DNA of 32,000 nt from an uncultured bacterium (GCA_964630235.1 CAZVUO010000001.1:1026506-1058505); one strand, 5' to 3'; shown: positions 1,062-27,513, counted from the first letter of the stretch. Program-made: numbers and translations. The notes: generated by a model not told the origin, from the letters alone.

Positions 1062-3584
1062 GTGACCCGCAAACCTTCCGCGCCTGTTCGTCCCATGCAA
1101 ACCGGCCTGCCGCTCTGGCTGCTCCTGCTCCTGGCCGGCTGGCTGGCCTTCCTCGCTTACCACACCCTGCGCGCCCATCCCATCTCCCTCAGGTCCTGGA
1201 CGACGTTCTTCGATCTTTCCCGGTTCGGGCCCCTGCAGTGGACCGTGGCCGGCCCGCACCTGCTCTCCCTGCTCAAGAACCTTCTGCTCCTGGCCGCCTG
1301 GCTGGCCGCGGCCTACGGGCCGGGCCAGTTCCTGCGCCGGCGCTGGCTGGCCGTTCAGGCGCCGCGTCTGGAGCTGGCGCTGGAAAGCCTGGCCCTCGGG
1401 TTCGCGCTGTGGATGCTCCTGCTGTTCGGCCTGGCCAGCCTCGGCCTGCTCTACCCGTGGCTCATGGCGCTCCTGCTGTTTCCGGCCGCGGGCTGGGGCC
1501 TCTGGGCCGCGTGCCAGCACCGCGACGACCTGCGTCCCCGGCGCGGCTGGCTCCTGGGCCGGCCCGGCTGGCCCGAAGCGGGCCTGGCCGCGGTTGTTTT
1601 TCTGTTCGCGTCTTTTACAGCCGCCATGGCCCTCACGCCGGAAATCTTTTTCGATTCCCTGGTCTACCACCTGGCCGTGCCCGCGGCCTGGATCCGCCAG
1701 CATGGGTTTACGCCCCTCCCGTACAACTTTTTTTCCAACTTTCCCATGGGCCTGGAGATGCTGTACACCGGCAGCCTGCTCCTGTCCGACGAAATTCTCT
1801 GCCGCCTGCTGCACACGGTTCTTGGCTGGCTGGCCGGCCTGTCCACCTTTGCCCTGGGACGGCGCTGGTTCGGCCGCAAGGCAGGGCTCTGGGCCTTGGG
1901 ACTGTTCCTGTGCATTCCCGTGGTGGTCATGAACCAGCTGGTCTCGGGCGTGGACGTGGCGGCGGTTTTTTTCGGCGTCCTGGCCGTGAACCGGTTCTGG
2001 GCCTGGGCCCTGGGTCCGGCCCAGGACGGATCGCGGCAGGGACTTCTGGCCGCCGGCCTGCTCATGGGTGCATCCCTGGGCGTGAAATACAACATGATTT
2101 TTCTTCATGCCCCGGCCGTGGCCATCGGCGGCTTTTTGGCGTGGAAGCAGGGCCGGCGGGTTTCCGACCTGATGAAGACCCTCCTGCTGCTGGCTGCCGC
2201 GGGGTCGCTCCTGGTTTTGCCCTGGATGGTGAAGAGCACGGCCTACACCGGCAATCCGGTGTTTCCCTTCCTGTACCGCCTCCTGCCCAGCCCGCAGGTG
2301 CACCCTGAAAAGATGCAGCAGCAAATGGACGGCTTCAAGGAATACGGCCAGCGCACCTGGACCCAGTTCCTGCGCCAGCCGTGGGACCTGACCTTCTACC
2401 TGCCGACCAGTAATTCCTTCATCGGGCAGGCTTTCCTGTTTCTTTTGCCCGGCGTTCTGATCCTGGCCTGGGCCTCCCGCCGGGGGCCTCCGGCCGCGTG
2501 GTGCTTTCTCGCCACGGCCGCGGCGGCCGTGCTGGCGTGGAGCAGCCAGACGCAGATCACGCGCTACTTGATCCCCGTGTTTCCGGTCCTGGCCGTGCTG
2601 TCCGCCGTGGCGCTGAACCAGTGGGAAGCGCGGCACGCACTCCTGGCCGGCCTGGGACGGCTGGGCGTGCTGGGTTTTTGGCTCTGGAGCTTCGGCGTCA
2701 CCCTGACCATCGGCCTGCCGAACTACGACCCCTTCGGCGTGCTCCTCGGCCGCGAATCCCGCTGGGCCTATCTGGACCGAAAACTCATGAACAGCTATGC
2801 GCCCCTGGCCCGGCAGGTGAACGCGCTTCCGCCGCGGAGCAAGGTGCTTCTCTTCGGCGAAACCCGCTCCTATTATTTTGACCGGGAGGTGACCGCGGCC
2901 ACGGTCTACGACTACAACCCCCTGCTGGAATGGATCGCCGGGGCCGGATCCGGCGAGGAGGTGTGGCGGCGCCTGCGGCAGGAAGGGTACACGCACGTGC
3001 TGGTGCATGGCGCGGAGGCCGCCCGCACCCGGGGCTACGAGCCCCGCCGCTGGACCGGCGCGGACGTGCGGCGCTGGCAGGAGCTCGAGGCCCGCTACTG
3101 GCGGCCAGCCGCGGCGCACGGCGCCCAGCAGCTGTTCGAGGTGCGCGCGGAACCTGATCCCGGCGCGCCGGTCAAAGCCGGCCGCCCGCTGTTCGCGTAC
3201 GATCCGGACCTGCTGGGCAACATCATCGCCGGGTATCAGCAGGCCTCGGTTGCCCTGCAAAAAGGCGACCATGAAGGCGCGCGGGTCCGCTGGCTGCAGC
3301 TGACCCGGATTGCCCCGGACTGGGGGCCGGCCTACGTGGACCTGGCCTGGCTCAGCCTCCGGGCCGAGCGCCAGGACGAGGCCTTCGCTTTTTACCAGCA
3401 GGCTGACCGCCTGATCGTGCTGGACCCGGGGTCCTACAACAATCTGGGCGTTCTGTATCAGCGGGCCGGGCGCGTCGCGGACGCCAGGCGCTGTTTCCGT
3501 GAAGCCCTGGCCGCGGCGCCGGGCCTGGAGGCCGCAAGGGACAATTTAGATCAACTCGAAAAGGCCGCGCCGAAGGATCAATAG
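1062..3584 (+). CDS. Polytopic membrane protein with C-terminal TPR repeats, GT-C-type glycosyltransferase-like (family unresolved)
   Basis: 840-aa ORF. The first ~560 aa are a run of >10 hydrophobic helices. The C-terminus has TPR-like repeats (NNLGVLYQRAGRVADARRCFREALAAAP). This architecture recalls PMT/ArnT/DUF2723-type GT-C enzymes. Start is GTG 1062 or ATG 1095. Confidence 0.6.
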   Translation: MTRKPSAPVRPMQTGLPLWLLLLLAGWLAFLAYHTLRAHPISLRSWTTFFDLSRFGPLQWTVAGPHLLSLLKNLLLLAAWLAAAYGPGQFLRRRWLAVQAPRLELALESLALGFALWMLLLFGLASLGLLYPWLMALLLFPAAGWGLWAACQHRDDLRPRRGWLLGRPGWPEAGLAAVVFLFASFTAAMALTPEIFFDSLVYHLAVPAAWIRQHGFTPLPYNFFSNFPMGLEMLYTGSLLLSDEILCRLLHTVLGWLAGLSTFALGRRWFGRKAGLWALGLFLCIPVVVMNQLVSGVDVAAVFFGVLAVNRFWAWALGPAQDGSRQGLLAAGLLMGASLGVKYNMIFLHAPAVAIGGFLAWKQGRRVSDLMKTLLLLAAAGSLLVLPWMVKSTAYTGNPVFPFLYRLLPSPQVHPEKMQQQMDGFKEYGQRTWTQFLRQPWDLTFYLPTSNSFIGQAFLFLLPGVLILAWASRRGPPAAWCFLATAAAAVLAWSSQTQITRYLIPVFPVLAVLSAVALNQWEARHALLAGLGRLGVLGFWLWSFGVTLTIGLPNYDPFGVLLGRESRWAYLDRKLMNSYAPLARQVNALPPRSKVLLFGETRSYYFDREVTAATVYDYNPLLEWIAGAGSGEEVWRRLRQEGYTHVLVHGAEAARTRGYEPRRWTGADVRRWQELEARYWRPAAAHGAQQLFEVRAEPDPGAPVKAGRPLFAYDPDLLGNIIAGYQQASVALQKGDHEGARVRWLQLTRIAPDWGPAYVDLAWLSLRAERQDEAFAFYQQADRLIVLDPGSYNNLGVLYQRAGRVADARRCFREALAAAPGLEAARDNLDQLEKAAPKDQ

Positions 3585-3590
3585 AAGTTC

Positions 3591-3675
3591 GTCATTCCGG
3601 CGCGTAGTAAGCCGGAATCCAGAGGTCTTGGATACAATCGTCCTGGACCCCGGCTAAGACCATGCCGGGGTGACG
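3591..3675. repeat. Inverted pair of REP-A palindromes (GTCATTCCGGC-N-GCCGGAATCCAG type)
   Basis: 3591-3622 reads gtcattccggcgcgtagtaagccggaatccag. 3643-3675 reads ctggaccccggctaagaccatgccggggtgacg and is the same unit inverted. Related copies are at 10280-10340, 11105-11136, 11440-11471, 14834-14865, 16616-16650, 18510-18541 and 22174-22258. Confidence 0.8.
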
Positions 3676-3693
3676 AATAAAAGAGAGACGACT

Positions 3694-4602
3694 ATGCCGA
3701 CGCAAGACGCATCCCGCGAAGCCGTTCCTTGCAGCGTGTGCGGCGAGCAGCCGCCTGTCCGGCCCGCGTTCGAGAGCAAGGGGTTCCGGATCGTGCGCTG
3801 TCCGCGCTGCGGAGTATTGCGGGTATCGCCGCGCTTGACCGCAAACGCACTGAAAGCGTATTATGGCCCGGCGTATTGGAAAAGCGGCGATTCCGTGGCG
3901 CGGGGCTATTTCGACTACCTCGGCGACGAGGCCAACATCCGCCGCACGTTCCAGCGCAGGTGGCAGTGGCTGGGAAAACGGCTGCCGCGCGCCGGCCGCC
4001 TGCTGGATCTGGGTTGCGCCAGCGGATTCCTGCTGGACGAAGCGCGACGCGCGGGCTGGGACGCGGTCGGGGTGGAATGGTCCGAACACGCCCGCGCGAA
4101 CGCGCCGGCCGCGGTCCGCTCGCGCATCGCGGCCAGCCTCGCGGAGCTGAAGCTCGCGGACGCGAGCGTGGACTGCGTCACGGCCTGGGACTACCTCGAG
4201 CACAGCCAGGACCCGGCTGCTGAACTGGAAACCTGGGCCCGCCTGCTCGCACCCGGCGGCTGGCTGTCGGTCATCATCCCGGACGCCGGATCCTGGCTGG
4301 CGCGGCTCCTGGGCCCCCGCTGGGAAGAGTTCAAAAAGCCCGAAGAGCACCTGTACTTTTTCACGGGCCGGCAGCTCGAACGCCTGCTGGCCCGGCTGGG
4401 CCTGCGCGTTCTGGGCCGCCGCTACGAAGGCAAATACGCCAGCCTGAAGTTCGCGTTCTCGCGGTTCAAACCCGGCGACGGCCCGCTGCACGGAGCCAGC
4501 CGGCTGGCCGGAAAGCTGGCGCGGGCCCTGGGCCTGGAGGACCGCGTGGCGTACGTCAATCCATTCGACAAGCTGCACGTGGTCGCGCAAAAGGCGTCTT
4601 GA
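3694..4602 (+). CDS. Class I SAM-dependent methyltransferase with N-terminal zinc ribbon
   Basis: ORF 3670..4602, with ATG at 3694 preferred. Has CSVCGEQ...CPRCG (CxxC x2) followed by SAM motif I LLDLGCASGFLLDEA. Confidence 0.85.
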   Translation: MPTQDASREAVPCSVCGEQPPVRPAFESKGFRIVRCPRCGVLRVSPRLTANALKAYYGPAYWKSGDSVARGYFDYLGDEANIRRTFQRRWQWLGKRLPRAGRLLDLGCASGFLLDEARRAGWDAVGVEWSEHARANAPAAVRSRIAASLAELKLADASVDCVTAWDYLEHSQDPAAELETWARLLAPGGWLSVIIPDAGSWLARLLGPRWEEFKKPEEHLYFFTGRQLERLLARLGLRVLGRRYEGKYASLKFAFSRFKPGDGPLHGASRLAGKLARALGLEDRVAYVNPFDKLHVVAQKAS

Positions 4603-10345: not shown

Positions 10346-10380
10346 AAGGGGCGCGATATCTTCTTCGCGCCCCTTTTTTT
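10346..10380 (+). terminator. Rho-independent terminator after purM
   Basis: Stem ggggcgcga / tcgcgcccc with an 8-nt loop, followed by a T7 run (10374-10380). Confidence 0.8.
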
Positions 10381-10388
10381 ATTAATAA

Positions 10389-10418
10389 CCCCTCTCCCTT
10401 GAGGGGAGAGGGTGAGGG
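10389..10418. repeat. REP-D palindrome, left island edge
   Basis: Reads cccctctcccttgaggggagagggtgaggg. Its reverse complement, with a 1-nt indel, sits at 20197-20225. Confidence 0.75.
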
Positions 10419-11094
10419 AGAGGGTGCTGAGATTTTCCTCCCCCTTTTCTAAAGGGGGAGAAGGGGGATTACTCCTAAACCTTCAAGCTGGAGGTTGATT
10501 AAATGTTAGTAATCTCCCCTTGCCCCTCTTTAAGAAAGAGGGGTAGAGGGCGGAAGGTCTTTATCTCCTGCTCATCTGTTCCACTGCTCAACTGCTCAAC
10601 TGCTCTGCCCTGCGTACTCTGCAGGGCTTGGGGGGAGGGTGAGGGAGAGGGTGCTGAGAATTGCTTCCCCCTTTTCTAAAGGGGGAGAAGGGGGATTACT
10701 CCTAAACCTTCAAGCTGGAAGTTGATTGATTGTTAGTAATCTCCCCTTGCCCCTCTTTAAAAAAGAGGGGGAGAGGAAGGAAAGTCTTTACCTCCTGCTC
10801 ACCTGTTCAACTACTCAACTGCTCTGCCCTGCGTACTTTGCAGGGCTTGGGGGGAGGGCGAGGGAGAGGGTGCTAAGATTTTCCTCCCCCTTTTCTAAAG
10901 GGGGAGAAGGGGGATTACTCCTAAACCTTCAAGCTGGAGGTTGATTAAATGTTAGTAATCTCCCCTTGCCCCTCTTTAAGAAAGAGGGGTAGAGGGCGGA
11001 AGGTCTTTATCTCCTGCTCACCTATTCAACTACTCAACTGCTCTGCCCTGCGTACTCTGCAGGGCTTGGGGGGAGAGTGAGGGAGAGGGTGAAC
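10411..11094 (+). repeat. Three tandem ~219-227-bp composite repeat units
   Basis: The unit start GG(T/C)GAGGGAGAGGGTGCT recurs at 10411, 10638 and 10857, with a partial fourth start at 11076. Each unit holds four or five distinct hairpins, e.g. ccccctttt cta aaaggggg, cccctcttt aag aaagagggg and gccctgc gtactct gcagggc. Confidence 0.85.
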
Positions 11095-11099
11095 ATCGC

Positions 11100-11136
11100 T
11101 TGCCGTCATACCGGAATGCCCCTAACCGGTATCCAG
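11100..11136 (+). repeat. 37-nt direct repeat, copy 1 (contains REP-A)
   Basis: ttgccgtcataccggaatgcccctaaccggtatccag, repeated at 11435-11471 with 1 mismatch. Confidence 0.85.
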
Positions 11137-11471: not shown

Positions 11472-11664
11472 TACTATCCCCTTGCCCCGCGACAAGCGGG
11501 GAGAGGGTGGGGGTGAGGGGAACAACTGAGCAGTTATCGTGGGACCGCCGCGCATCCGCACAAATCTCCTTCTCGTCCCAACCTGCACATTTTACTGGTT
11601 ATAGGTGGAAATTGAGGGGGAGGGGAGTATAATGCCGGTTGAAAGCGTTAAAAAGGAGGGATTA

Positions 11665-12576
11665 ATGCCTGTTCCTGACTTTCAATCCTTTTTCAAACCG
11701 TTACTTGAATTAGCTGCCGACGGAAACGAACATTCTATCCAGGAAGCCAGAGAAAAAATCGCGAAGAACATGTCCCTTGATAAAGAGGCTTTAGCCGAGC
11801 TTTTACCGAGTGGTACTCAAAATAAATTTGATAACCGCGTAGCCTGGGCAAAGAGTTATTTTGTCCAGGCAAAGGTTTTGGAACCTACTCGCCGTGGTTG
11901 TTTTCGCATAACCAATAGAGGTCGTGAATTATTGGGACAAGGGCACAAGCGCATTGATGTTAAGGTGTTAGGACAATATCCTGAGTTTATTGAATTTCAC
12001 ACTGCTGGGCGGAGTTCTGCCTCGCAACCTGCAATCGTACCCGACGAAAAACAAGCCGAAACACCAGAAGAAATACTGCAAAAAGCCTATCAAAGTATTC
12101 GGGGCGAATTGGCAAGTGATATCTTGAACCGGATCAAGTCAAACACCCCCACATTTTTCGAAAATTTAGTCGTTGATTTAATGGTGGCGATGGGCTACGG
12201 CGGCTCGCGTGCTGATGCTGGGAATGCGATTGGCCGAGCTGGTGATGAAGGCATAGATGGTATCATTAAAGAGGACAAACTTGGGCTCGATACCATTTAC
12301 CTACAAGCGAAAAGATGGGATGGGTCCGTCGGCAGACCGGAAATTCATAAATTCGTAGGTGCTCTTGAAGGCAAGCGAGCTAAAAAGGGTGTGTTCATCA
12401 CAACAGGGAAATTCACGGATGAAGCCGTAAAATATGTAGGCAACATTAATCCAAAAGTGATCCTTATTGATGGCCGCGAGCTTGCCAATCTGATGATTGA
12501 TCATGACCTCGGGATTACAGTCACGGCAAAATATGAGATTAAGAGGATAGATTCGGATTATTTTGGGGAAGAATAA
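11665..12576 (+). CDS. mrr: Mrr-family type IV (modification-dependent) restriction endonuclease
   Basis: N-terminal Mrr_N-type winged helix (PDFQSFFKPLLELAADG...RVAWAKSYFVQAKVLE). C-terminal PD-(D/E)xK core (GDEGIDGIIKEDKLGLDTIYLQAKRW). The ATG at 11665 lies 5 nt after AGGAGG. In-frame ATG 11632 and GTG 11605 are also possible starts. Confidence 0.9.
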   Translation: MPVPDFQSFFKPLLELAADGNEHSIQEAREKIAKNMSLDKEALAELLPSGTQNKFDNRVAWAKSYFVQAKVLEPTRRGCFRITNRGRELLGQGHKRIDVKVLGQYPEFIEFHTAGRSSASQPAIVPDEKQAETPEEILQKAYQSIRGELASDILNRIKSNTPTFFENLVVDLMVAMGYGGSRADAGNAIGRAGDEGIDGIIKEDKLGLDTIYLQAKRWDGSVGRPEIHKFVGALEGKRAKKGVFITTGKFTDEAVKYVGNINPKVILIDGRELANLMIDHDLGITVTAKYEIKRIDSDYFGEE

Positions 12577-12663
12577 AGAGGAAATGGAGACCCCTCACTA
12601 ATTAATGAGCTAAAATCGGATTAATTTAGGTGTATCCTCGGGTTTCAATTTGTGAGGTGCAAA

Positions 12664-14358
12664 ATGAAAATAGATTCTCGTGATCGATGTATCAAGGATT
12701 TATTTCAATCAGGTTATTATAAAATACCTAGATTTCAAAGACCTTATTCTTGGGATAAAGAGAATATAATAGAATTTTGGACGGATGTTTTTATTGAAAG
12801 TGAAAAAGAATATTTTATTGGTTCGATGGTTGTATATAAAGAACGAGAATACTATGGAATAGTTGATGGACAACAGCGCCTAACAACAATAACAATGATT
12901 CTATGCGCGTTACGTAACTGTTTTAGACAAGAAGGTTACAAGGATATGGCAGATGGGATACATGCATTAATTGAAAGATCAAATATAGATAATAAGCCAC
13001 AATTTGTTTTATCGACGGAGACTTCATATCCATATTTTCAGGAAAAAATACAAAAGTATGATAATACTACATTTCACGAAAAACCAAGTGAAGAAGAAAT
13101 GAATTTATTTAATACATTTGAATTTATAAATATGTCTATTAACCAAGCGGTTGAAAATATTAAAAATGATAACAGTTTATCGGATGAGAAAAAACCAGGA
13201 GAAATCAGAAACAAATTAATAAATATGCGTGAAAATATATTGGGATTGAAACTTATATTAATAGAATTAGATAATGAAGATGATGCATATGTAATATTTG
13301 AAACCTTAAATACACGAGGTAAAGATTTAGGAGTAGGTGATTTAGTTAAGAACCATCTGGCAAAACAAATTAAACCCAAAACAGCTAATGTAGACACTCT
13401 TAAACATCAATGGGAAAAAATAATTAAAACCCTTGATGAATCACCAGCTGACTTAAATATCGATACATTTTTATTACACTATTGGTTGTCAAAACATGAC
13501 TACACTACTGAGAAAAAATTATATAGAGAAATAAGGAAAATAGTAGTAAAGGATAATGCTCAACCATTTTTAGATGAGATATCTAAGGATGCCATAACCT
13601 ATCGGGAAATAAACGAAACCAGTTATAGGAGATGGAGAATAGACCAAATAGAAATTAGGAAATCACTAGATGCCCTTTCGATATTCAAAGTTAAGCAACA
13701 GATGCCTTTGGTACTGGCAATTATGAGAGATTATCAAAATGGTGATATTAAGAAGAAACATGTTGAAAGATTATTGACAATTATTGAGAAATTCCATTTT
13801 AAATTTACAGCTATCACATCGCAAAGATCATCTGGCGGAATATCTCAAATGTATGCTATTGCCTCAAAAAAGATCAGTAATACAAAAAATATCGATCAAA
13901 AGCTTGCTGCTGTGGAAGAATTAGAGGCAAAAATAAGTGAAAAGAGTCCCACTGAGGAAGAATTTATGCTTGGATTTAAAGGTATTATATGTACTGACAA
14001 ATATATTAAACAAAAAAGACTAGTGAGATATATATTAGAAAAAGTACATTCTAATTATTATAAAGACCACGCGCCAGTTAATTATGACGAAATGACAATT
14101 GAACATATTTTACCTCAGGCAAATATAGGGTTGAAATATGATTTGAACGAAAAGGTTGTTGGACAAATCGGGAATTTGTTATTTGTGCCGCAGGATATTA
14201 ACGATGAACTCAAGAATAAAAAATATGAAGATAAATTAAAAATATTAAAAAAACATAGGTATCCATTAGATGAACGTCTTAAAAAGGAGAAAGAGTGGGA
14301 TGCTTCAACAATCAATCGTAGAACATCATTCCTATCAAAAATATTATATAACAATTAA
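12664..14358 (+). CDS. DUF262/DUF1524 (GmrSD-like) nuclease
   Basis: N-terminal DUF262 motif VDGQQRLTTI. C-terminal His-Me/DUF1524 motifs MTIEHILPQ and IGNLLFVPQDINDELKNKKY. The ATG at 12664 lies 4 nt after GAGGTG. The gene is very AT-rich compared with its neighbours. Confidence 0.88.
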   Translation: MKIDSRDRCIKDLFQSGYYKIPRFQRPYSWDKENIIEFWTDVFIESEKEYFIGSMVVYKEREYYGIVDGQQRLTTITMILCALRNCFRQEGYKDMADGIHALIERSNIDNKPQFVLSTETSYPYFQEKIQKYDNTTFHEKPSEEEMNLFNTFEFINMSINQAVENIKNDNSLSDEKKPGEIRNKLINMRENILGLKLILIELDNEDDAYVIFETLNTRGKDLGVGDLVKNHLAKQIKPKTANVDTLKHQWEKIIKTLDESPADLNIDTFLLHYWLSKHDYTTEKKLYREIRKIVVKDNAQPFLDEISKDAITYREINETSYRRWRIDQIEIRKSLDALSIFKVKQQMPLVLAIMRDYQNGDIKKKHVERLLTIIEKFHFKFTAITSQRSSGGISQMYAIASKKISNTKNIDQKLAAVEELEAKISEKSPTEEEFMLGFKGIICTDKYIKQKRLVRYILEKVHSNYYKDHAPVNYDEMTIEHILPQANIGLKYDLNEKVVGQIGNLLFVPQDINDELKNKKYEDKLKILKKHRYPLDERLKKEKEWDASTINRRTSFLSKILYNN

Positions 14359-14360
14359 TG

Positions 14361-14391
14361 GAATGGTGCCGGAGTTGGTTTGTTAGTTTAA
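14361..14391 (+). repeat. Junction motif copy a
   Basis: gaatggtgccggagttggtttgttagtttaa, starting 3 nt after the GmrSD-like stop. Followed by TAATAA and, 50 nt later, DUF1801 fragment 1. Confidence 0.85.
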
Positions 14392-14441
14392 TAATCCTCC
14401 CCCTTCACCCTTCGACTGGCTAAGGGCGCCATCGGAGCACC

Positions 14442-14621
14442 ATGAATCAACCTCAGTCCTCTCCCTCCTCCTTGATCACCCGCCGCATTGCGGAACTGGG
14501 CGACTGGCGCGGACAGGTCCTGAGCCGGGTGCGGGCGCTAATCAAACAAGCTGATCCTGAGGTAATCGAAGAATGGAAGTGGAGGGGGGTTCCGGTGTGG
14601 TCCCACAATGGGAGCGTCTGA
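14442..14621 (+). pseudogene. Truncated DUF1801 (YdhG-like) gene, copy 1
   Basis: 59 codons: MNQPQSSPSSLITRRIAELGDWRGQVLSRVRALIKQADPEVIEEWKWRGVPVWSHNGSV. From memory, full-length family members continue for about 60+ more residues. The reading frame is closed by the TGA of the motif b prefix. Confidence 0.6.
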
Positions 14622-14650
14622 ATGGTGCCGGAGTTAGTTTGTTAGTTTAA
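14620..14650 (+). repeat. Junction motif copy b
   Basis: gaatggtgccggagttagtttgttagtttaa. Truncates DUF1801 copy 1 and begins composite X1. Confidence 0.85.
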
Positions 14651-14889
14651 GCGGCGATACATTTTCCTTCCCCCGCCCTCGCCCCAAGCCCTGCAACCTA
14701 CGCAGGGCAGAGCAGCTGAACAGCGGAGCAGGCGAGCAGGTGAAGAAAGATCACCACCCGCCCCCGCCAGCCATTTAAATCCAGATCGCCGCGTCCCTCT
14801 GGTCCTCGCAATGACTAATAAATATAAATCCCCTGGATTCCGGCTTAAGACATGCCGGAATGACGGCGGAGTGTGAATGGGGACGGAGT
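14624..14889 (+). repeat. 266-nt palindrome composite X1
   Basis: About 262/266 identical to 18302-18567 by eye. Made of the junction motif, an inverted copy of the tandem-unit segment (ccctcgccccaagccctgcaacctacgcagggcagagc...), REP-B (14782-14816), REP-A (14834-14865) and a terminal tgaatggggacggagt. Confidence 0.85.
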
Positions 14890-15491
14890 GGAGTTACCCC
14901 ACTTTTGTAGACACAAGAGAAGGGCAATTCAACTCATACTGTGCGGGGCTCAAATACCCCAGCGTTGAGTGCATTCTCCTGCGATTGTAAAACACTTCGA
15001 TGTATTCAAACAACTGCGCTTTTGCTTCTTCTCTGGAACCGAACCGAGCGTCGTTCTGCAACTCGGTTTTGAGCGTCTTGAAAAAGCTCTCCACGACCGC
15101 GTTGTCCCAGCAATTGCCTTTGCGGCTCATGCTGATTTGAATGTTGTACTCCTTCGCCTTGGCCTGAAAAAGGTGGCTCCGATACTGGCTCCCTTGATCC
15201 GAATGGTGGATTAAAGAGCCCTCTGGCTGCCGACTCAATATCGCCATCTCTAATGCATCCAGCACAAGGCGTTCGGTCATTTGGCCGTGCATCGACCAGC
15301 CTACGATCCTTCTCGAAAACAGGTCCATTACAATCGCCAGATGGACCCAACCCGAACCCGTCCAAAAAGCGGTCATGTCGGCCGCCCACACTTGGTTCGG
15401 TTCGGGAACGCTGAATTGCCTTTGAACCAAGTTGTTCGCTGCCGTCGCCGTCTTGAAGGCGCTTTTCCAACGCATCCGGCGGTGTGTGAAA
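14889..15491 (-). mobile_element. IS3-family insertion sequence remnant (right end plus 3' part of orfB)
   Basis: The terminal TGGAGTTACCCCACTTTTGTAGACAC at 14889 resembles IS3-family IRs (TG...CCCC...GACAC, from memory). The left part, including orfA and the 5' part of orfB, is missing and replaced at 15492 by junction motif c. Confidence 0.8.
14894..15475 (-). pseudogene. IS3-family transposase OrfB, C-terminal DDE (rve) portion
   Basis: Contains VWAADMTAF, LIHHSDQGSQY and CWDNAVVESFFKTLKTE (the DDE triad context). Only 193 aa remain, with no HTH region or orfA. Confidence 0.85.
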
Positions 15492-15518
15492 GGTGCCGGA
15501 GTTAGTTTATTAGTTTAA
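15492..15518 (+). repeat. Junction motif copy c
   Basis: ggtgccggagttagtttattagtttaa. Cuts the IS3 transposase. Followed by TAATAA and, 51 nt later, DUF1801 fragment 2. Confidence 0.85.
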
Positions 15519-15569
15519 TAAATATCCCCTCTGCCACATCAGCCCACTTAAGGCGATATCAGGGGTACT

Positions 15570-15674
15570 ATGAAACAACCAGTGGTTTCTCCCTCCGCCT
15601 TGATCACCCGCCGCATCGCTGAACTTGGAGACTGGCGCGGCCAAGTCTGCTTGGGGACGTTCTTAAAAGATTAA
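15570..15674 (+). pseudogene. Truncated DUF1801 gene, copy 2
   Basis: MKQPVVSPSALITRRIAELGDWRGQV, after which homology ends at about 15648. There a second junction-type sequence begins (ttggggacgttcttaaaagattaaatc), which recurs at 16069-16098. Confidence 0.5.
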
Positions 15675-15692
15675 ATCAGGTCCTCTTACTTT

Positions 15693-15809
15693 GAACCCGC
15701 CAGTGCCAGCAAGCAAAACCTAGATTGCCGCGACCTTGTGGTCCTCGCAATGACTGCTTTGGATTTCGCCCTTCGACAGGCTCAGGGCACTACCTACTCA
15801 AGACGTCCT
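15693..15809 (+). repeat. REP-B composite copy
   Basis: gaacccgccagtgccagc...tagattgccgcg...ctcgcaatgactgctttggatttcgcccttcgacaggctcagggcactacctactcaagacgtcc. The last ~65 nt appear identical to 17750-17814. Confidence 0.75.
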
Positions 15810-15891
15810 CACCCTCTCTCTCGCCCTCTCTCCTCGAGGGAGAGGGGAATGCCTAGGTGAGGATCAAGGTAATGTCCGCAGGAGGTTCAGC

Positions 15892-15922
15892 GAATGGTGA
15901 CGGAGTTAGTTTATTAGTTTAA
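15892..15922 (+). repeat. Junction motif copy d
   Basis: gaatggtgacggagttagtttattagtttaa followed by taaag and then, immediately, copy e. Confidence 0.85.
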
Positions 15923-15927
15923 TAAAG

Positions 15928-16064
15928 GAATGGTGCCGGTGTTAGTTTATTAGTTTAAGCTTCCGAACCCGCCAGCGCCAGCAGGTAAAACCCAGATTGC
16001 CGCGTCCCTTTTTGGCCTAGCAATGACTGCTTTGGTTTTCGGCCTTCGATAGGCTCGGGGCGCT
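15928..16064 (+). repeat. Junction motif copy e (15928-15958) plus REP-B composite
   Basis: The first ~80 nt appear identical to 17660-17740 (gaatggtgccggtgttagtttattagtttaagcttccgaacccgccagcgccagcaggtaaaacccagattgccgcgtccct). Confidence 0.85.
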
Positions 16065-16246
16065 ATCTGCTAGGGACGTTCTTAAAAGAGTGAATCTGCT
16101 CTTGCCCTTTTCCCCGTTCAGGTTGCCTAAAAAAGCTATCAATGTTTTGGTGCGGACCACTAATGAGGAGGGTGTCAACAAAGTGTCCTCGAAATTGTGG
16201 AATATTAACAGCATGGTGATAATAAAGAAAATAAATAATTCTAATT

Positions 16247-16495
16247 TTACTTAATAATTGCCGCTCTGATAGTACTATAGTATGCTCCGTTAATAAATAT
16301 TCTACAAATGTAAATACCAGAAGCCATGTTTCTACAATTCCAAGTTAAGATCTCACCAGCACTAAGTTGTTGATGGAGATCAGCTACTTTTTCACCGACT
16401 GAATTATAGATTCTTAGCTGGACTTCTACGTTTTTATCCAAATCCAAAGCAAAGTTAATAACAACTGCAGCTGGGTTCGGATAAATGTGAACCGG
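16247..16495 (-). pseudogene. Fragment encoding a T9SS-type C-terminal sorting domain
   Basis: From ORF 16247..16543. HIYPNPAAVVINFALDLDKNVEVQLRIYNSVGEKVADL...SGIYICRIFINGAYYSTIRAAIIK fits the Por secretion-tail pattern. There is no upstream protein body, and the 5' side runs into a REP-B element (16520-16600). Confidence 0.55.
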
Positions 16496-16763
16496 GACGT
16501 AGATAAGTATATAAGTATATATGAACCCGCCGGTACCAGCCATTTAACCCAGATTGCCGCGTCGCCCGCTTTACAAATTCGGGGATCCTCGCAATGACTA
16601 ATAAGCGCACATTCCCTGGATTCCGGCTTAATACGCGTCGGAATGACGGACATATGAATTAATAGTCCTGCCCCATATTATACAAATGGAATAAGCCGGA
16701 ATCCGGTCAAATAAATCAGCATTAACATTCAACCCAAGCATAATTTAGGGTGGGGTGGTCTTC

Positions 16764-16802
16764 TTGACAAATTGTACAATAAGAAGTACAATAAATTGTA
16801 CA
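16764..16802 (+). promoter_or_regulatory. Sigma70-type promoter with palindromic operator for the TA operon
   Basis: TTGACA (16764-16769), a 17-nt spacer and TACAAT (16787-16792). The TTGTACAA palindrome at 16772-16779 and TTGTACA at 16796-16802 overlap the promoter. Confidence 0.7.
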
Positions 16803-16838
16803 GAAGGCGAGCATGGGGTAAAAGGGGGAATAAGTGCC

Positions 16839-17105
16839 ATGACCACATTAGCGATATCCGAAGCCCGCAAGGAGCTTAACCATCTGCCGAAACGGTTGGA
16901 AAGGGAACACGAAGCCATTGGGATCACCCAGAACGGCAAACCCGTGATGGCGATTATGGATTGGGATTTCTACGAGACGATTATGGAGTCCTTGGAAGTA
17001 TTAGGAGATGATACGCTGCTGGCTAAAGTGAAAAAGGGGCTTCAAGAGATCAACACCGGCAAGGGTATTAGTTGGGAAACGGCGAAAAAGGCGCTTAATC
17101 TTTGA
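16839..17105 (+). CDS. Phd/YefM-family type II antitoxin
   Basis: MTTLAISEARKELNHLPKRLEREHEAIGITQNGKPVMAIMDWDFYETIMESLE. An RBS (aaaggggg) lies upstream. The stop overlaps the toxin TTG start (TTGA). Confidence 0.85.
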   Translation: MTTLAISEARKELNHLPKRLEREHEAIGITQNGKPVMAIMDWDFYETIMESLEVLGDDTLLAKVKKGLQEINTGKGISWETAKKALNL

Positions 17106-17419
17106 AATACAAGGTCATCATTGCTCCTTCTGCCCTGGAAATGCTCAAACGCGTCGAAGACCGGCGCGTTCGCGAGATATTGATCCGAAGCATTGATGAC
17201 TTGGCCATAGAGCCGGGGAAGAAGGGCAAACCCCTTATGGGTTCTCTGGAAGGTTTACGAAGTATTAGAGCAGTGGGCCAGCGATACCGGATTATTTACC
17301 AAATCAAAGATGATACTGTGGAAGTTATTATAATCGCAGTAGGATTAAGAAAAGAAGGCGATTCAAAGGATATTTATAACCTGATTAAAAAGATGGTTAA
17401 ACACAATCTGTTAGGTTAG
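17102..17419 (+). CDS. RelE/ParE-family type II toxin
   Basis: 105 aa. YRIIYQIKDDTVEVIIIAVGLRKEGDSKDIY is typical of RelE/ParE toxins. Translationally coupled to the antitoxin. Confidence 0.85.
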   Translation: MKYKVIIAPSALEMLKRVEDRRVREILIRSIDDLAIEPGKKGKPLMGSLEGLRSIRAVGQRYRIIYQIKDDTVEVIIIAVGLRKEGDSKDIYNLIKKMVKHNLLG

Positions 17420-17444
17420 CAGACGCTTGGCGTAATGAGCGTAT

Positions 17445-17473
17445 TGGGGACGGAGTTAGTTTGTTCGTTTTAA
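17445..17473 (+). repeat. Junction motif copy f (GGGGACGG variant)
   Basis: tggggacggagttagtttgttcgttttaa, 26 nt after the toxin stop. The 17-mer cgtattggggacggagt (17440-17456) recurs inverted at 18832-18848. Confidence 0.8.
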
Positions 17474-17498
17474 TTTCTCTCGCCAAGTTCCCGCTGCC

Positions 17499-17658
17499 CT
17501 ACTTTCCCACCTCCACCTCCACTGGCAAAGCCTCTGCTTTTACCTCTTCCACGATCTTGCACATGACCGGACCCTGGTGATAGGACGCGTGGAGCGTGTA
17601 GCGTCCTGGCCCGCTGAAGAAGACGACCATAAAGCCTCTCAGCATTTCCTTATCCTTA
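17499..17658 (-). pseudogene. 3'-terminal fragment (last 52 codons plus stop) of a homologue of gene 20229..20978
   Basis: 160 nt aligns without gaps to 20229-20388 with 13 differences. Encodes KDKEMLRGFMVVFFSGPGRYTLHASYHQGPVMCKIVEEVKAEALPVEVEVGK*. Cut at 17658/17659 by the prefix of junction motif g. Confidence 0.85.
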
Positions 17659-17659
17659 T

Positions 17660-17814
17660 GAATGGTGCCGGTGTTAGTTTATTAGTTTAAGCTTCCGAAC
17701 CCGCCAGCGCCAGCAGGTAAAACCCAGATTGCCGCGTCCCTCTGGTCCTCGCAATGACTGCTTTGGATTTCGCCCTTCGACAGGCTCAGGGCACTACCTA
17801 CTCAAGACGTCCGC
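17660..17814 (+). repeat. Junction motif copy g (17660-17690) plus REP-B composite
   Basis: See 15928-16064 and 15693-15809 for the matching copies. Confidence 0.85.
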
Positions 17815-17869
17815 GCCCTCTCCCTCGCGCGAATATAAGGAAAAACAATAAACGTGTTTACTCTGACTT

Positions 17870-18289
17870 CTATAGGATGGGAACATACGTGCTCCAGATC
17901 TCAATAATTATCTGGCATTGAAGGCATCTCAAATAAATGGAACCGCTGCTCGGAGGTGCACACTGCTCAAATACCACATCTGAATCAACAGACACGTGCT
18001 TGCTGCCGCATTTATCACATTGAATGGTAAATTGATTCACGTTATTTATAGGAGGATAGAATATATCAAGCTCGACTCTATTTTCGCATTCCGAGCAGAC
18101 AAAATATACCCCGCCCAAATATAAAGAAGCTCCAAACGAAAAGCCAAAGTCTGAATCGAAATAAACTTTATCAGTGTTACAGCATGCACAAGTTATTGTA
18201 AAGTCGGGATGAGTCATCTTTAAGAAATCGTCTTGCTCAGGTGGATAACTAATCATATTTAAATGCTCCAACATAAGATATCTCGACAT
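17870..18289 (-). CDS. Hypothetical protein with two tandem 4-Cys zinc-ribbon-like repeats
   Basis: Internal duplication: FTITCACCNTDKVYFDSDFGF...GGVYFVCSECENRVELDIF aligns with FTIQCDKCGSKHVSVDSDVVF...GSIYLRCLQCQIIIEIW (CxxC...CxxC twice). Only 12 nt separate the ATG from junction motif h and no SD is visible. It may be 5'-truncated or not expressed. Confidence 0.5.
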   Translation of the reverse strand: MSRYLMLEHLNMISYPPEQDDFLKMTHPDFTITCACCNTDKVYFDSDFGFSFGASLYLGGVYFVCSECENRVELDIFYPPINNVNQFTIQCDKCGSKHVSVDSDVVFEQCAPPSSGSIYLRCLQCQIIIEIWSTYVPIL

Positions 18290-18301
18290 TATACGTGAAA
18301 C

Positions 18302-18328
18302 GGTGCCGGAGTTAGTTTATTAGTTTAA
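18302..18328 (+). repeat. Junction motif copy h
   Basis: ggtgccggagttagtttattagtttaa. Begins composite X2. Confidence 0.85.
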
Positions 18329-18567
18329 GTGGCGACACCTTTTCCTTCCCCCGCCCTCGCCCCAAGCCCTGCAACCTACGCAGGGCAGAGCAGCTGAACA
18401 GCGGAGCAGGCGAGCAGGTGAAGAAAGATCACCACCCGCCCCCGCCAGCCATTTAAATCCAGATCGCCGCGTCCCTCTGGTCCTCGCAATGACTAATAAA
18501 TATAAATCCCCTGGATTCCGGCTTAAGACATGCCGGAATGACGGCGGAGTGTGAATGGGGACGGAGT
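18302..18567 (+). repeat. 266-nt palindrome composite X2
   Basis: Near-identical duplicate of 14624-14889. I saw 4 differences, all within the first ~40 nt. Confidence 0.85.
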
Positions 18568-18583
18568 TAAGTTATTAACTTAA
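18553..18583 (+). repeat. Junction motif copy i (palindromic variant)
   Basis: gaatggggacggagttaagttattaacttaa. Here the AT-rich part is a perfect palindrome, TTAAGTTA-T-TAACTTAA. Confidence 0.8.
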
Positions 18584-18843
18584 GGATCAGAGCAAAATAA
18601 ACCGCCGCTGCCAGCCATTTAAATCCAGATTGCCGCGGCCCTCTGGTCCTCGCAATTGTATGCGGGACACTGGTGAATGAATAACTTAAGTACAGAAAAA
18701 ACAGCAAGGAATTATAGTTGTTGGTTAGAAGTTAAGCTACTAATTCACCAGTGTCCCCGAGAGCATAGACACGCCACCTTGATTGGTATTATACTACTTT
18801 TTCGATGAGTCCTCTTTTTTGGGGGAAGCCCACTCCGTCCCCA
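18556..18843. mobile_element. Candidate 288-nt MITE-like element with 12-nt perfect terminal inverted repeats
   Basis: TGGGGACGGAGT at 18556-18567 and its reverse complement ACTCCGTCCCCA at 18832-18843. The interior holds a REP-B piece and the long hairpin at 18664-18757. No coding capacity. Confidence 0.5.
18664..18757. repeat. Long hairpin (15-bp perfect stem, 64-nt loop)
   Basis: gggacactggtgaat (18664-18678) pairs with attcaccagtgtccc (18743-18757). The loop is AT-rich with repeated AACTTAAG/AGTTAAG words. Confidence 0.7.
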
Positions 18844-18879
18844 ATACGAGAACATATTTATCTGACGCGGGAGGCTTAA

Positions 18880-20228: not shown

Positions 20229-20978
20229 TTATTTTCCCACCTCCACCTCCACTGGCAAAGCCTCTGCTTTTACCTCTTCCACGATCTTGCACATGACCGG
20301 GGTTTGGTGATAGGAAGCATGCAAAGTGTATCGGCCTGGCCCGCTGAAGAAGACGACCATAAAGCCTCTCAGCATTTCCTTATCCTTAATATGATTTTTG
20401 ATCCACGCGCGGTTGACGCCAAAGACCAGTATGGATGACCGCTCGATCTCGGGAATGGTCTTGAGCTCGTCCATGCCATCTGGGTCCAGGGTCGCGACTG
20501 ACAACTGTTCGGGTTTCAGCTCGGAATTAGGGACCCAGCAGGCCTGCAAGGCCGTAACGTGCCCGGCCCCTGGCTTAAGCACCTTGCCGGCCTTGCGCAC
20601 CGCGTCCTCGTTCACCGGCTCGGCTGGCGGTCCATAGTAAGTGCGCAGTTCGTGGCCAGACGCGCTCTGGCCCTGGGCCTGGGGTTTGAACTTGAGGTCC
20701 CATTCCATGCCCATGCTGGCCACTGAGATCTGCCAGGACAAGGCAGTATAGGCCGGGTAGATCGTGACCGGCAGGGGCGAGTTATTGGTCAGGCGCAAAC
20801 GGATGGTGACATCGCGCATTTTATGGCTGGGCCACAGCGCTGGTTCGATCTCGGCTTCAAGCAGGATGTTCATGGCGTTTCCTTTCTCCGCCGCCGAAAC
20901 AGCGGGCGCGCAGGCCGTAAAGGAAACAAGAAGAACGCCTGCGCCAAAATACCGTATCACGTCCAGCAATGCTCCCAC
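20229..20978 (-). CDS. Hypothetical secreted protein / possible lipoprotein
   Basis: N-terminal signal-like segment RYFGAGVLLVSFTACAPAVSAAE (possible lipobox FTAC). GGAGG-rich RBS. The start is ambiguous (GTG 20978 or TTG 20969). No recognisable domain. Confidence 0.72.
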   Translation of the reverse strand: MGALLDVIRYFGAGVLLVSFTACAPAVSAAEKGNAMNILLEAEIEPALWPSHKMRDVTIRLRLTNNSPLPVTIYPAYTALSWQISVASMGMEWDLKFKPQAQGQSASGHELRTYYGPPAEPVNEDAVRKAGKVLKPGAGHVTALQACWVPNSELKPEQLSVATLDPDGMDELKTIPEIERSSILVFGVNRAWIKNHIKDKEMLRGFMVVFFSGPGRYTLHASYHQTPVMCKIVEEVKAEALPVEVEVGK

Positions 20979-25929: not shown

Positions 25930-27513
25930 ATGGTGAAAATCAAACGGGCATTGATCAGTGTATCGGACAAAACCGGGATCGTGGAGCTGGGCCAGGGCTT
26001 GATCCGGCACGGCGTGGAGATCCTGTCCACCGGCGGCACGGCCAAGGCGCTGAAGGAGGCCGGCCTCAAGGTGAAGGACGTTTCCGAGGTCACGGGCTTT
26101 CCGGAAATGATGGACGGGCGGGTGAAGACCTTGCACCCCAAGATCCACGGCGGCCTGCTGGCCCTGCGCGACAACCCGGACCACATGCGCCAGCTGGCGG
26201 AGCAGAAGATCGAGCCCATTGACATGGTGGTCGTGAACCTGTACCCCTTCGCCCGCACCGTGGCCAAGCCCGGCGTGCACCTGGAGGAGGCCATCGAGAA
26301 CATTGACATCGGCGGGCCTTCGATGATCCGCTCGGCCTCCAAAAACTTCCGCAGCGTGGCCGTGGTGGTGAACCCGGCCCGCTACGCGGCCCTGCTCGCG
26401 GAGATGGACCAGCAGGAAGGAGAGGTGGGCGACGACACCCTGAAGCAGCTCGCGGTGGAGGCCTTCGACCACACCGCGGAGTATGACGCCGGCATCCACC
26501 GCTACCTGTTGGAGAAGCTCGGCGCCGAGGCGGGACCCTTCCCGGAGACCATTCGCTTTACCTTTCACCGGCAGCAGGCTCTGCGTTACGGCGAGAATCC
26601 GCACCAGCAGGCCGCCTGGTACCGCCAGGCCGCCCTGAACGCGCCGGACGCCGAGGCCACGCTCAGCTCGGCCAAGCAGCTGCAGGGCAAGGAACTGTCG
26701 TTCAACAACCTGCTCGACCTGCACGCGGCCCTGGAGCCGGTGAAGGAATTCGCGGAGCCCGCGGCCTGCATCATCAAGCACACCAATCCCTGCGGCCTGG
26801 CCATCGGCGCGGACATCGCCGAGGCCTACCGCAAGGCCTACCACGCGGACCCCCTGTCCGCCTACGGGGGCATCGTGGGCCTGAACCGGCCGCTGAACCG
26901 GGCCGTGGCCGAGCTCATGCAGGATATCTTCCTGGAGTGCGTCATCGCGCCCGGGTTCGAGCCCGATGCCCTGGAGCTGCTGCGCGCCAAGAAGAACCTG
27001 CGCCTGCTCGAGATCGGCGCCCTGGCCCCGGCCTCCGGCGCGCTCCTGTCCTGGCAGACCATGGACCTGAAGCGCGTGTCCGGCGGCCTCCTGCTCCAGG
27101 AGCGGGACCGCGGCCAGGTCAAGCCCGACGGCCTGAAGGTGGTCAGCCAGCAGCAGCCCACGGCCGAACAGATGCGGGACCTGCTCTTCGGCTGGCAGGT
27201 GTGCAAGCACGTCAAGTCCAACGCCATTGTCCTGGTCCATCACGGCGCCACGGTGGGCGTAGGGCCGGGGCAGACCAACCGCGTGGGCGCCGCGGAGATC
27301 GCGGTGCGCCAGGCCGGGGAGCGGGCCCGGGGCGCGGTCGTGGCCTCGGACGCCTATTTCCCGTTCCGCGACGGGGTGGACCTGCTCGCCAAGGCGGGAG
27401 TTTCGGCCGTGATCCAGCCCGGCGGGTCGGTCAGGGACGAGGAAGTCATCGCCGCGGCCAACGAACACAAGCTGCCCATGGTGTTCACCGGCATGCGGCA
27501 TTTCAAACACTAA
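25930..27513 (+). CDS. purH: Bifunctional AICAR transformylase / IMP cyclohydrolase PurH
   Basis: N-terminal MGS-like domain ([28 protein letters not shown]). C-terminal AICARFT domain ([24 protein letters not shown] end). Confidence 0.95.

Follow-up and report, generated by a model that had tools for sequence, protein, structure and literature searches.

What are the short repeats that stand, all in one orientation, at the edges of truncated genes and insertion elements in a 32,000-nt stretch of DNA from an uncultured bacterium (GCA_964630235.1, CAZVUO010000001.1:1026506-1058505; hereafter the window, meaning that whole stretch), and which kind of enzyme could have placed them there? An earlier note, made from this sequence alone, had described nine copies of a 27-31-nt motif and had read them as a one-directional cassette accretion site with no assignable recombinase. 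Here we propose that the motif is probably the outer terminal repeat of small mobile elements of a RAYT-like Y1 (HUH) transposase with a C-terminal helix-turn-helix (HTH) domain, belonging to the TIRYT/TIRtron class, and that the array in the window is a local pile of such repeats. An enzyme class can be assigned to the motif because the same sequence forms the repeats that bracket Y1 genes elsewhere.

The motif and its association with Y1 genes in other genomes

Pattern scans against shuffled sequence bore out nine copies on one strand at 14361-18583, two stumps, and no other copy in the window. A degenerate pattern gave nine matches, all on the plus strand (0-0.07 expected in shuffled sequence), and the 31-mer consensus gave seven at three or fewer mismatches. 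A scan that allowed mismatches revealed no further copy in the rest of the 32 kb, and the AT-rich right half of the motif, searched on its own, gave no orphan right halves in the same 32 kb.

Our scan of other genomes covered one genome per species, with loci numbered L001 and so on. It recovered a 27-mer, GGGGACGG(A/T)GTTAGTTTATTAGTTTAA, nearly identical to the window motif, in three other metagenome-assembled genomes (MAGs); together with one metagenome contig these hold 25 copies at 18 loci. Within the three MAGs the copies are dispersed over many contigs, lie on both strands and are mostly intergenic, and one copy occupies an orthologous position in two species-level MAGs. Inner and outer boundaries are sharp at every copy, the base after TTTAA varies, and, because the sequence on both sides differs between copies, the 27-mer can be regarded as a discrete module. 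Direct arrays are not the rule in these genomes, where most copies are solitary or inverted. The hosts are distant from one another: the window belongs to an FCPU426-like genome, bin_296 is related to Desulfuromonadales (HflX closest, 64%), and L008 comes from Firestonebacteria. The presence of a near-identical 27-mer in unrelated hosts therefore indicates either horizontal spread or tight constraint by a mobile enzyme. A metagenome scan with a 22-mer gave a single match only, and searches of viral contigs and of plasmids gave none.

The association with an enzyme comes from inverted pairs. At L009 (5135-4427), inverted 27-mers enclose a decayed PF01797 gene (tblastn E 1.6e-63; hidden Markov model (HMM) E 1e-44), and the same arrangement is found at L001 (7051-6661; E 3e-31). 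These Y1 'IS200-like' remnants are frameshifted and retain the NHFH motif and the RYKS segment. When the reconstructed protein was used as query, thousands of PF01797 proteins were recovered, of which some bear the name 'REP element-mobilizing transposase RayT' in their source. Intact homologues, 55-64% identical, belong to PF01797, carry the HUH motif as NHFH or NHVH and the tyrosine in RY[IV]HLNP, and have related inverted repeats 30-60 nt from the gene. These repeats read AGGGACGGAGTCAAGTTATCAA at L033, which is very close to window copy i, AGGACGGAGTTAGCTTAGYTTCATAA at L030, GGGGACGTAGTTAGGCAATAAGG at L024 and GGGACGTTGTTTGCTGG at L032. A C-terminal Bac_DnaA_C domain scores above the cutoff in the L029 protein (E 4e-9) and weakly in P0105 and P0080 (E 0.03-0.15). 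No target-site duplication was seen in the flanks of the intact Y1 loci, as expected for a Y1 enzyme. A complete element consists of a repeat, about 30-60 nt, the Y1 gene and an inverted repeat; most copies in the genomes are solo repeats or inverted doublets, non-autonomous and presumably served in trans.

The claim that no recombinase could be assigned does not survive these comparisons, since inverted copies of the motif bracket Y1/HUH genes in other genomes in a manner that fits the TIRYT/TIRtron class. Nor does the motif lack inverted symmetry altogether, as had been suggested: a single copy indeed forms no hairpin (folding energy 0 kcal/mol, no better than shuffles), but inverted pairs occur at L003, L006, L001 and L009, and within the window copy i pairs with an inverted stump. 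The doublets at L003 and L006 are 38 and 81 nt apart. At L005 (4572-4734), an inverted doublet of about 77 nt is flanked by a 37-nt direct repeat (97%), with a 6-7-nt spacer on each side; the arrangement resembles a target duplication of unusual length, or else a doublet inserted where a duplication already existed.

The contexts of three further Y1 homologues showed no clear flanking repeat pair: none at L028, one side at L029, and only a one-sided GGGGACGTTGTTT at L027. The short Y1 gene at L027 sits, in an ENA contig, within a 495-nt perfect inverted repeat (2400-2894 and 3434-3928), for which a hairpin artefact of assembly is a likelier explanation than biology.

Relation to TIRYT/TIRtron elements and to other repeat systems

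RAYT-like genes flanked by long terminal inverted repeats that share GGGGWSAS, and not by hairpins of the repetitive extragenic palindromic (REP) type, were described by Di Nocera, De Gregorio and Rocco in 2013 (PMC3733652), who named the element TIRtron and the protein TIRYT and noted repeat families of moderate abundance, whose members stand singly, as dimers or in clusters. Quentin et al. (2018; PMC6006769) assigned the TIRYTs to subclass 2.1 of the Y1 superfamily, the second-largest prokaryotic Y1 HUH subclass, with proteins of this type in 14.9% of strains; subclass 2.1 proteins are long and have a C-terminal HTH (Bac_DnaA_C, HTH_23 or HTH_28), and REP-like structures are not found nearby.

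The present motif resembles this class in several respects. Inverted copies lie a short distance from a RAYT-like PF01797 gene (in other genomes, not inside the window), the outer end starts with GGGG-A-C, in partial agreement with the published GGGGWSAS, and the associated protein combines HUH and Tyr with a DnaA_C-like HTH at its C-terminus. The repeat has no hairpin and occurs as singles, as inverted doublets (L003, L006) and as a cluster (the window). The GGGGACGG head, carried by window copies f and i, by both stumps and by all MAG copies, agrees with GGGGWSAS at 7/8 positions, the GGTGCCGG head of the window majority at 5/8, and an inverted doublet of a further repeat class at 18664/18757 (GGGGACAC) at 8/8. 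What sets the window apart is a dense head-to-tail array of solo ends and no transposase gene. On this comparison of sequences we regard the motif as a putative TIRYT/TIRtron-class terminal repeat, which fits the class in the genes that it brackets, in their protein domains and in its lack of a hairpin, and fits it in part at the outer end.

The REP/REPIN-RAYT system (REPtron) of Proteobacteria offers a parallel outside that class. It shares short, dispersed, mostly intergenic repeats flanking a Y1 relative in inverted orientation, as well as singletons, inverted doublets, copies at orthologous positions and targeting by the IS3 family; IS1397, for example, inserts into the REPs of Escherichia coli. 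However, REPs are imperfect palindromes of 20-40 nt that fold into hairpins and bear an unpaired GTAG or CGTC tag, whereas the window motif does not fold, and the protein associated with the motif has an extra HTH domain. Furthermore, RAYTs are typically single-copy and vertically inherited, whereas the decayed gene copies and cross-phylum spread seen here point to horizontal movement. A classical REP/REPIN was rejected for want of a stem: the head contains GACG, the reverse complement of CGTC, but the 8-9-bp stem and the CCA tail of CGTC REPs are absent.

IS200/IS605 elements (IS608 'peel and paste') likewise have a Y1 HUH domain, no target-site duplication and a short fixed sequence beside the inferred cut. 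Their left and right ends are unlike each other and carry subterminal hairpins, without terminal inverted repeats, and an IS200/IS605 end can be ruled out, the present ends being inverted repeats without hairpins. The likeness to IS91/ISCR/Helitron elements and to integron arrays is functional only, namely a fixed 5' end, a variable 3' end, one orientation and small accessory genes; those systems use Y2 Rep or IntI enzymes, there is no ori/ter pair or attC structure here, and we do not claim membership. The 38-bp Tn3 repeat (GGGG...TAAG) was excluded, as the motif measures 27-31 nt, the enclosed gene is Y1 and not DDE, and there is no 5-bp target duplication. Irregular spacing rules out CRISPR, and the absence of orphan right halves from the 32 kb rules out a split target site. 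The reverse complement of the motif reads ...CTCCGGCACCA, reminiscent of a tRNA 3' end, but the T-arm is absent.

Scars at the repeat edge

Two kinds of scar at the outer edge of the repeat may indicate how these elements move. Immediately outside the repeat we found up to four tandem units, in each of which 4-19 nt of the local flank are joined to the ~7 nt that open the repeat. An exact duplication of the full unit across the junction occurs at 10/25 copies, compared with 1.2% when 20,000 positions were drawn at random from those loci, and the break falls after GGGGACG in 6/9 duplication units that abut a full repeat. Such duplications are present on both sides of the intact elements at L024 (CAAATAGGGGACG three times on the left, 2887-2969; GGATATTGGGGACG twice on the right, 3988-4035) and L032 (GGTTGCGCCAGAGAGGACG four times, flanking 1501-2406). 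Upstream of L033 (330-445) there is a long GCGTTATAG run that includes AGGGACG, and L007 carries TGAAAAGTCCAGGGGACG twice. Further examples occur at L002, L003, L006, L011 and L012, and the window has degenerate forms ahead of copies i, c, b and f. The heptamer GGGGACG is also the common head of otherwise different repeats, at 15653 and 16072 in the window and at L008, L013 and L017.

The second scar involves IS3-family elements. Three IS3-type ends and a fourth sequence starting with TG lie directly after GGGGACGGAG, at 14889 and 18832 (minus strand) in the window and at 3899 and 1571 in L008, much as IS3-family elements target REP sequences. The window end that follows the stump at 14875-14888 begins TGGAGTTACCCC. 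In two places the same succession occurs in the same orientation, a stump leading into an IS3 end with part of orfB and then into a full repeat: at 14875-15518 in the window and at 3186-3909 in L008. The IS3 elements of the two genomes differ, and each is truncated inside orfB by a full repeat. The other two of the four sequences after GGGGACGGAG lie within 18758-18846 in the window and 1560-1581 in L008.

We found no mention of flank-plus-head duplications, the GGGGACG breakpoint or fixed-position IS3 insertions in PMC3733652 or PMC6006769; the word 'duplication' occurs 0 times in the former and 'tandem' 0 times in the latter. Judged from the sequences at hand, the flank/repeat junction duplications appear to be unreported so far, and the same appears to hold for a fixed-position IS3 insertion subsequently cut by a repeat in two unrelated genomes.

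Organization of the array

Most of the window copies belong to one variant. The GGTGCCGG head is found in 7/9 of them, and those copies share the 4-nt prefix GAAT; the GGGGACGG head is found in copies f and i and in both stumps. Copy a (14361-14391; the class A repeat in its GGTGCCGG variant) lies 2 nt past the stop codon of an intact GmrSD gene. Copy b (14620-14650) heads a 276-nt repeated unit, D3 (14621-14896), that is bounded by direct repeat heads and contains, at 14875-14888, the 14-nt stump GAATGGGGACGGAG, which holds the first 10 nt of the repeat and is directly followed by the IS3-type end. Copy c (15488-15518) is followed by a leader and a second DUF1801 fragment (15570 to about 15648), with repeat families D13 and D14. 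Copy d (15892-15922; GGTGACGG variant) stands 5 nt before copy e (15928-15958), which is joined to REP-B and whose first 82 nt are 100% identical to the unit of copy g (D12). Copy f (17446-17472; GGGGACGG variant) lies 26 nt past an intact Phd/ParE pair (16755-17419). Copy g (17660-17690), again with REP-B, involves families D7, D9 and D12, and its tail is 92-96% identical to 15693-15824. Copy h (18298-18328) heads the second D3 unit (18299-18574). Copy i (18553-18583; GGGGACGGAGTTAAGTTATTAACTTAA) has a 7-bp hairpin core and is the closest window copy to the repeat flanking the intact Y1 gene at L033.

The inverted stump TATTGGGGACGGAG that the earlier note had listed is present on the minus strand at 18833-18846 and is the palindromic partner of copy i, with about 250 nt of inserted repeats between them. 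Within the array region there are also GGGGAC-headed repeats of two further classes. Class B is represented at 15653-15682 (GGGGACGTTCTTAAAAGA...), where it cuts DUF1801 fragment 2, and at 16072-16101 (AGGGACGTTCTTAAAAGAG...), both on the plus strand and both in family D16; the repeat at 15653 is related to repeats flanking Y1 genes at L027, L029 and L032. Class C is the inverted doublet noted above, at 18664-18757, with arms at 18664-18689 and 18732-18757 and GGGGACAC as its outer ends. The nine copies, one of the stumps and the two class B repeats all point the same way.

Several left edges of the motif coincide exactly with truncated genes or elements. DUF1801 fragment 1 (14442-14621, plus strand; PF08818, profile positions 2-32 of 85) is cut at copy b, where its stop TGA overlaps the motif prefix, leaving only 59 aa. 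An IS3-family fragment (14889-15487, minus strand) comprises a terminal repeat and a 193-aa remainder of orfB, from its 3' part, with matches to Pfam rve, rve_2 and rve_3; orfA is missing, the orfB fragment (14894-15475, minus strand) lacks its N-terminal part, and copy c cuts the far side of the IS3 fragment. At copy g, a 159-nt fragment (17500-17658, minus strand; D6) is a 92% copy of 20230-20388, the 3' end of the gene at 20229-20978, with homology running from the stop codon up to the motif. The ORF (open reading frame) at 17870-18289 (minus strand) has its start codon 8-12 nt from copy h. A short IS3-type end fragment, TGGGCTTCCCCCAAAAAAGAGGAC... (18758-18832, minus strand), is inserted after the inverted stump and shares 88% identity, across 34 nt, with the IS3 end at L008. 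The view that the left neighbours are truncated thus stands for several edges and fails for copies a and f, which are preceded by the intact GmrSD and ParE genes.

The three classes of right flank described earlier are real: copies a and c share D14/D13, copies b and h share D3 (276 nt, 97%), and copies e and g share D12 (82 nt, 100%). The ends of the units vary. Of the two truncated DUF1801 genes, one stops at codon 59 and the other near codon 27, and the lengths of IS3 kept in three cases are 598, 714 and ~75 nt. Unit g follows unit e for 82 nt and then switches to the REP copy at 15693-15824; because its head matches one and its tail the other, it is a recombinant mosaic. To judge by these sequence matches, homologous recombination among repeats has clearly contributed to the array.

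A model for the array and its alternatives

The model that we favour as the probable one would work as follows. The enzyme may nick single-stranded DNA at the outer end of the repeat, mostly directly 3' of GGGGACG. Strand transfers that fail or involve one end alone would, over short distances, leave the small flank-plus-head tandem duplications, and transfers over a longer range could create exact junctions between repeats and truncated genes, either by adjacent deletion or by variable-length copying of a repeat-headed segment that is rejoined at another repeat. With one-ended transfers acting at variable range, units would start exactly at a repeat and end at arbitrary points. The window array would then consist of solo, repeat-headed fragments that piled up locally in a low-GC island of foreign origin and were later reshaped as IS3 elements inserted after GGGGACGGAG, host REPs moved in and units recombined homologously with one another, while the enzyme would be encoded elsewhere in the genome or have been lost. 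The origin of the one-directional stack is something that we infer.

Two of the earlier claims meet different fates here. The reading of the motif as a mobile-element terminus is supported, and the left edges of several copies do fall exactly on truncated genes or elements, a pattern seen again in the unrelated L008. Repeated insertion at or just inside a resident copy, as the earlier note had it, may also have occurred. A dedicated accretion site, by contrast, is not supported, given the dispersed, mostly intergenic copies on both strands of the three MAGs and the copy at an orthologous position; this dispersal comes close to the widespread occurrence away from junctions that the earlier note had named as fatal to its reading.

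A number of observations weigh against the transposase model. A search of the 32-kb window by tblastn and, in six frames, with the family HMM found no Y1 gene or remnant at E values up to 10. Of Y1 genes bracketed by the exact 27-mer, only decayed ones were found, and the repeats of intact genes are related but not identical. The GGTGCCGG head alters the proposed cleavage heptamer in 7/9 window copies, and because these copies also share the GAAT prefix, some of them may be products of local duplication or recombination and not of transposition. Recombination is evident in unit g. Once duplicated units are set aside, about six independent copies remain, for which the uniform orientation reaches no more than modest significance (two-sided p ~0.03 by our own estimate), and the cleavage site and the one-ended mechanism are themselves read from sequence scars.

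Several of these observations would be expected if the array were a passive mosaic of decayed repeat remnants, similar to bacterial interspersed mosaic elements (BIMEs), with no enzyme acting here and with both stack and junctions produced by homologous recombination, gene conversion, segmental duplication and deletion. We consider this unlikely, while giving it more weight than any other alternative. Units b and h agree at 97% along 276 nt, the sequence of units e and g is the same for 82 nt before they diverge, and the tail of unit g matches another REP copy at 92-96%; REPs of the high-GC core have invaded the island (14830-14865, 16616-16651 and 18508-18543), a related strain has exactly the same junction at copy i, and a GGTGCCGG head with a GAAT prefix in most copies is what local copying predicts. 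However, recombination over 31 nt does not explain why sequences as unrelated as the DUF1801 gene, IS3 orfB and a lipoprotein gene should all break off precisely where the outer edge of a repeat lies, nor does it account for the independent stump/IS3/full-repeat arrangement at L008 or for fixed-breakpoint junction duplications in other genomes.

Alternatively, an HUH enzyme could drive a directional cassette platform, in effect the reading of the earlier note with an enzyme added. One repeat would serve as both origin and recombination site, cut after GGGGACG, and repeat-headed segments would be copied or excised and rejoined at another repeat in the same orientation, giving an integron-like or rolling-circle (IS91/ISCR/Helitron-like) stack that is complete at 5' ends and truncated at 3' ends. 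The shared orientation of nine copies, one stump and both class B repeats would suit such a platform, as would units that start exactly at a repeat and end variably (DUF1801 at codon 59 or ~27; IS3 after 598, 714 or ~75 nt), direct repeat heads that bound the D3 unit, and cassette-like cargo including toxin-antitoxin pairs in the window, L018, L028 and L029. Elsewhere, however, copies are mostly solitary or inverted, the orphan right halves expected from insertion into a resident copy were not seen in the 32 kb, and neither circular junctions nor presence/absence variants were found (one related strain compared). To our knowledge, moreover, no Y1 transposase works as a directional cassette platform. 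We therefore hold this reading to be very improbable. A related proposition, that the array and the junction duplications record an undescribed Y1/HUH mode in which a hairpin-free repeat is a one-ended origin and recombination site and the DNA to its right is moved over variable lengths, as an HUH-driven integron-like platform for defence and toxin-antitoxin genes, is slightly less so, and directional accretion altogether is a minority reading of low probability. If true, the cassette mode would amount to an integron-like collecting of small defence and toxin-antitoxin genes by an HUH enzyme. Lowest of all we rank an attC-like or other tyrosine-recombinase site, or a promoter or terminator common to the cassettes, which is hardly credible and already contradicted. 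Small genes and toxin-antitoxin pairs do lie between the copies, and the motif stands about 50 nt upstream of two DUF1801 starts, but there is no hairpin or attC-like imperfect palindrome of the R''-L''...L'-R' type, GTTAGTT does not fit the GTTRRRY core, no integrase is present among the 20 ORFs scanned (7.7-24.4 kb), and Rfam gives no match to the motif. In addition, the motif may point either way with respect to the genes beside it, and elsewhere it brackets Y1 genes.

Under the transposase model, the scars of TIRYT elements would predict a cleavage site and point to one-ended events, given the GGGGACG breakpoint, the duplications on both sides of intact elements and the repeat edges at truncated genes in two genomes. 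For annotation, what seemed an 'accretion site' without an enzyme becomes a recognizable class of repeat that breaks short-read assemblies and attracts IS3 elements.

Genomic setting and further observations

The array sits in a low-GC defence and toxin-antitoxin island of an FCPU426-like genome. The window flanks have a GC content of 64-70%, and the island, at 10-22 kb, of 30-57%; PurF is 85% identical to the PurF of a candidate division FCPU426 MAG. The island contains Mrr, GmrSD, the Phd/ParE pair, gene fragments and many short repeats. The Mrr-type and GmrSD-type restriction genes are adjacent (11605-14358) and occupy its lowest-GC part (30-40%, against ~67% for the genome). Toxin-antitoxin pairs (MNT/HEPN, HicAB, PIN, ParE) adjoin repeats or Y1 genes at L018 (203-1079), L028 and L029, to which the Phd/ParE pair in the window is a parallel. 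At the island borders we found no Rfam-supported tRNA and no integrase, and an Rfam scan of the whole window gave no family at the gathering threshold. ARAGORN called a 95-nt tRNA-Asp at 26754-26848 on the minus strand, within long ORFs, which is probably a false positive because Rfam finds no tRNA in the window.

A GC-rich hairpin repeat, CCCTGGATTCCGGC...GCCGGAATGACGG, is present at 14830-14865, 16616-16651 and 18508-18543 and matches L019-L021 (L019 5820-5858). Since this hairpin repeat of the array is also found upstream of purL in the high-GC core genome, host REPs must have colonized the foreign island. In the sole strain available for comparison (sample DRR321573; L034), the junction at copy i and the inverted stump are the same as in the window. 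That strain has 36 extra nt of host REP at window position 18656/18657 (L034 ~97-132) and otherwise differs by a single substitution across the stretch from copy i over the inserted repeats to the inverted stump; what varies between the strains is how long the REP is, and not the motif.

Neither GmrSD nor a 139-aa ORF gave a record when looked up as exact proteins, and the look-ups for PurF and a 425-aa ORF matched only short-read contigs, which are broken at repeats; short-read assemblies of the same organism are interrupted at the island edge and within the array. At the island edge, directly past purM (10349-11100), there are about 3.4 tandem units of 219 nt, and it is at these tandem repeats that short-read contigs of the same organism end. 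A 75-nt piece of the 219-nt unit is also found, inverted, in both D3 units (14669-14743 and 18347-18421).

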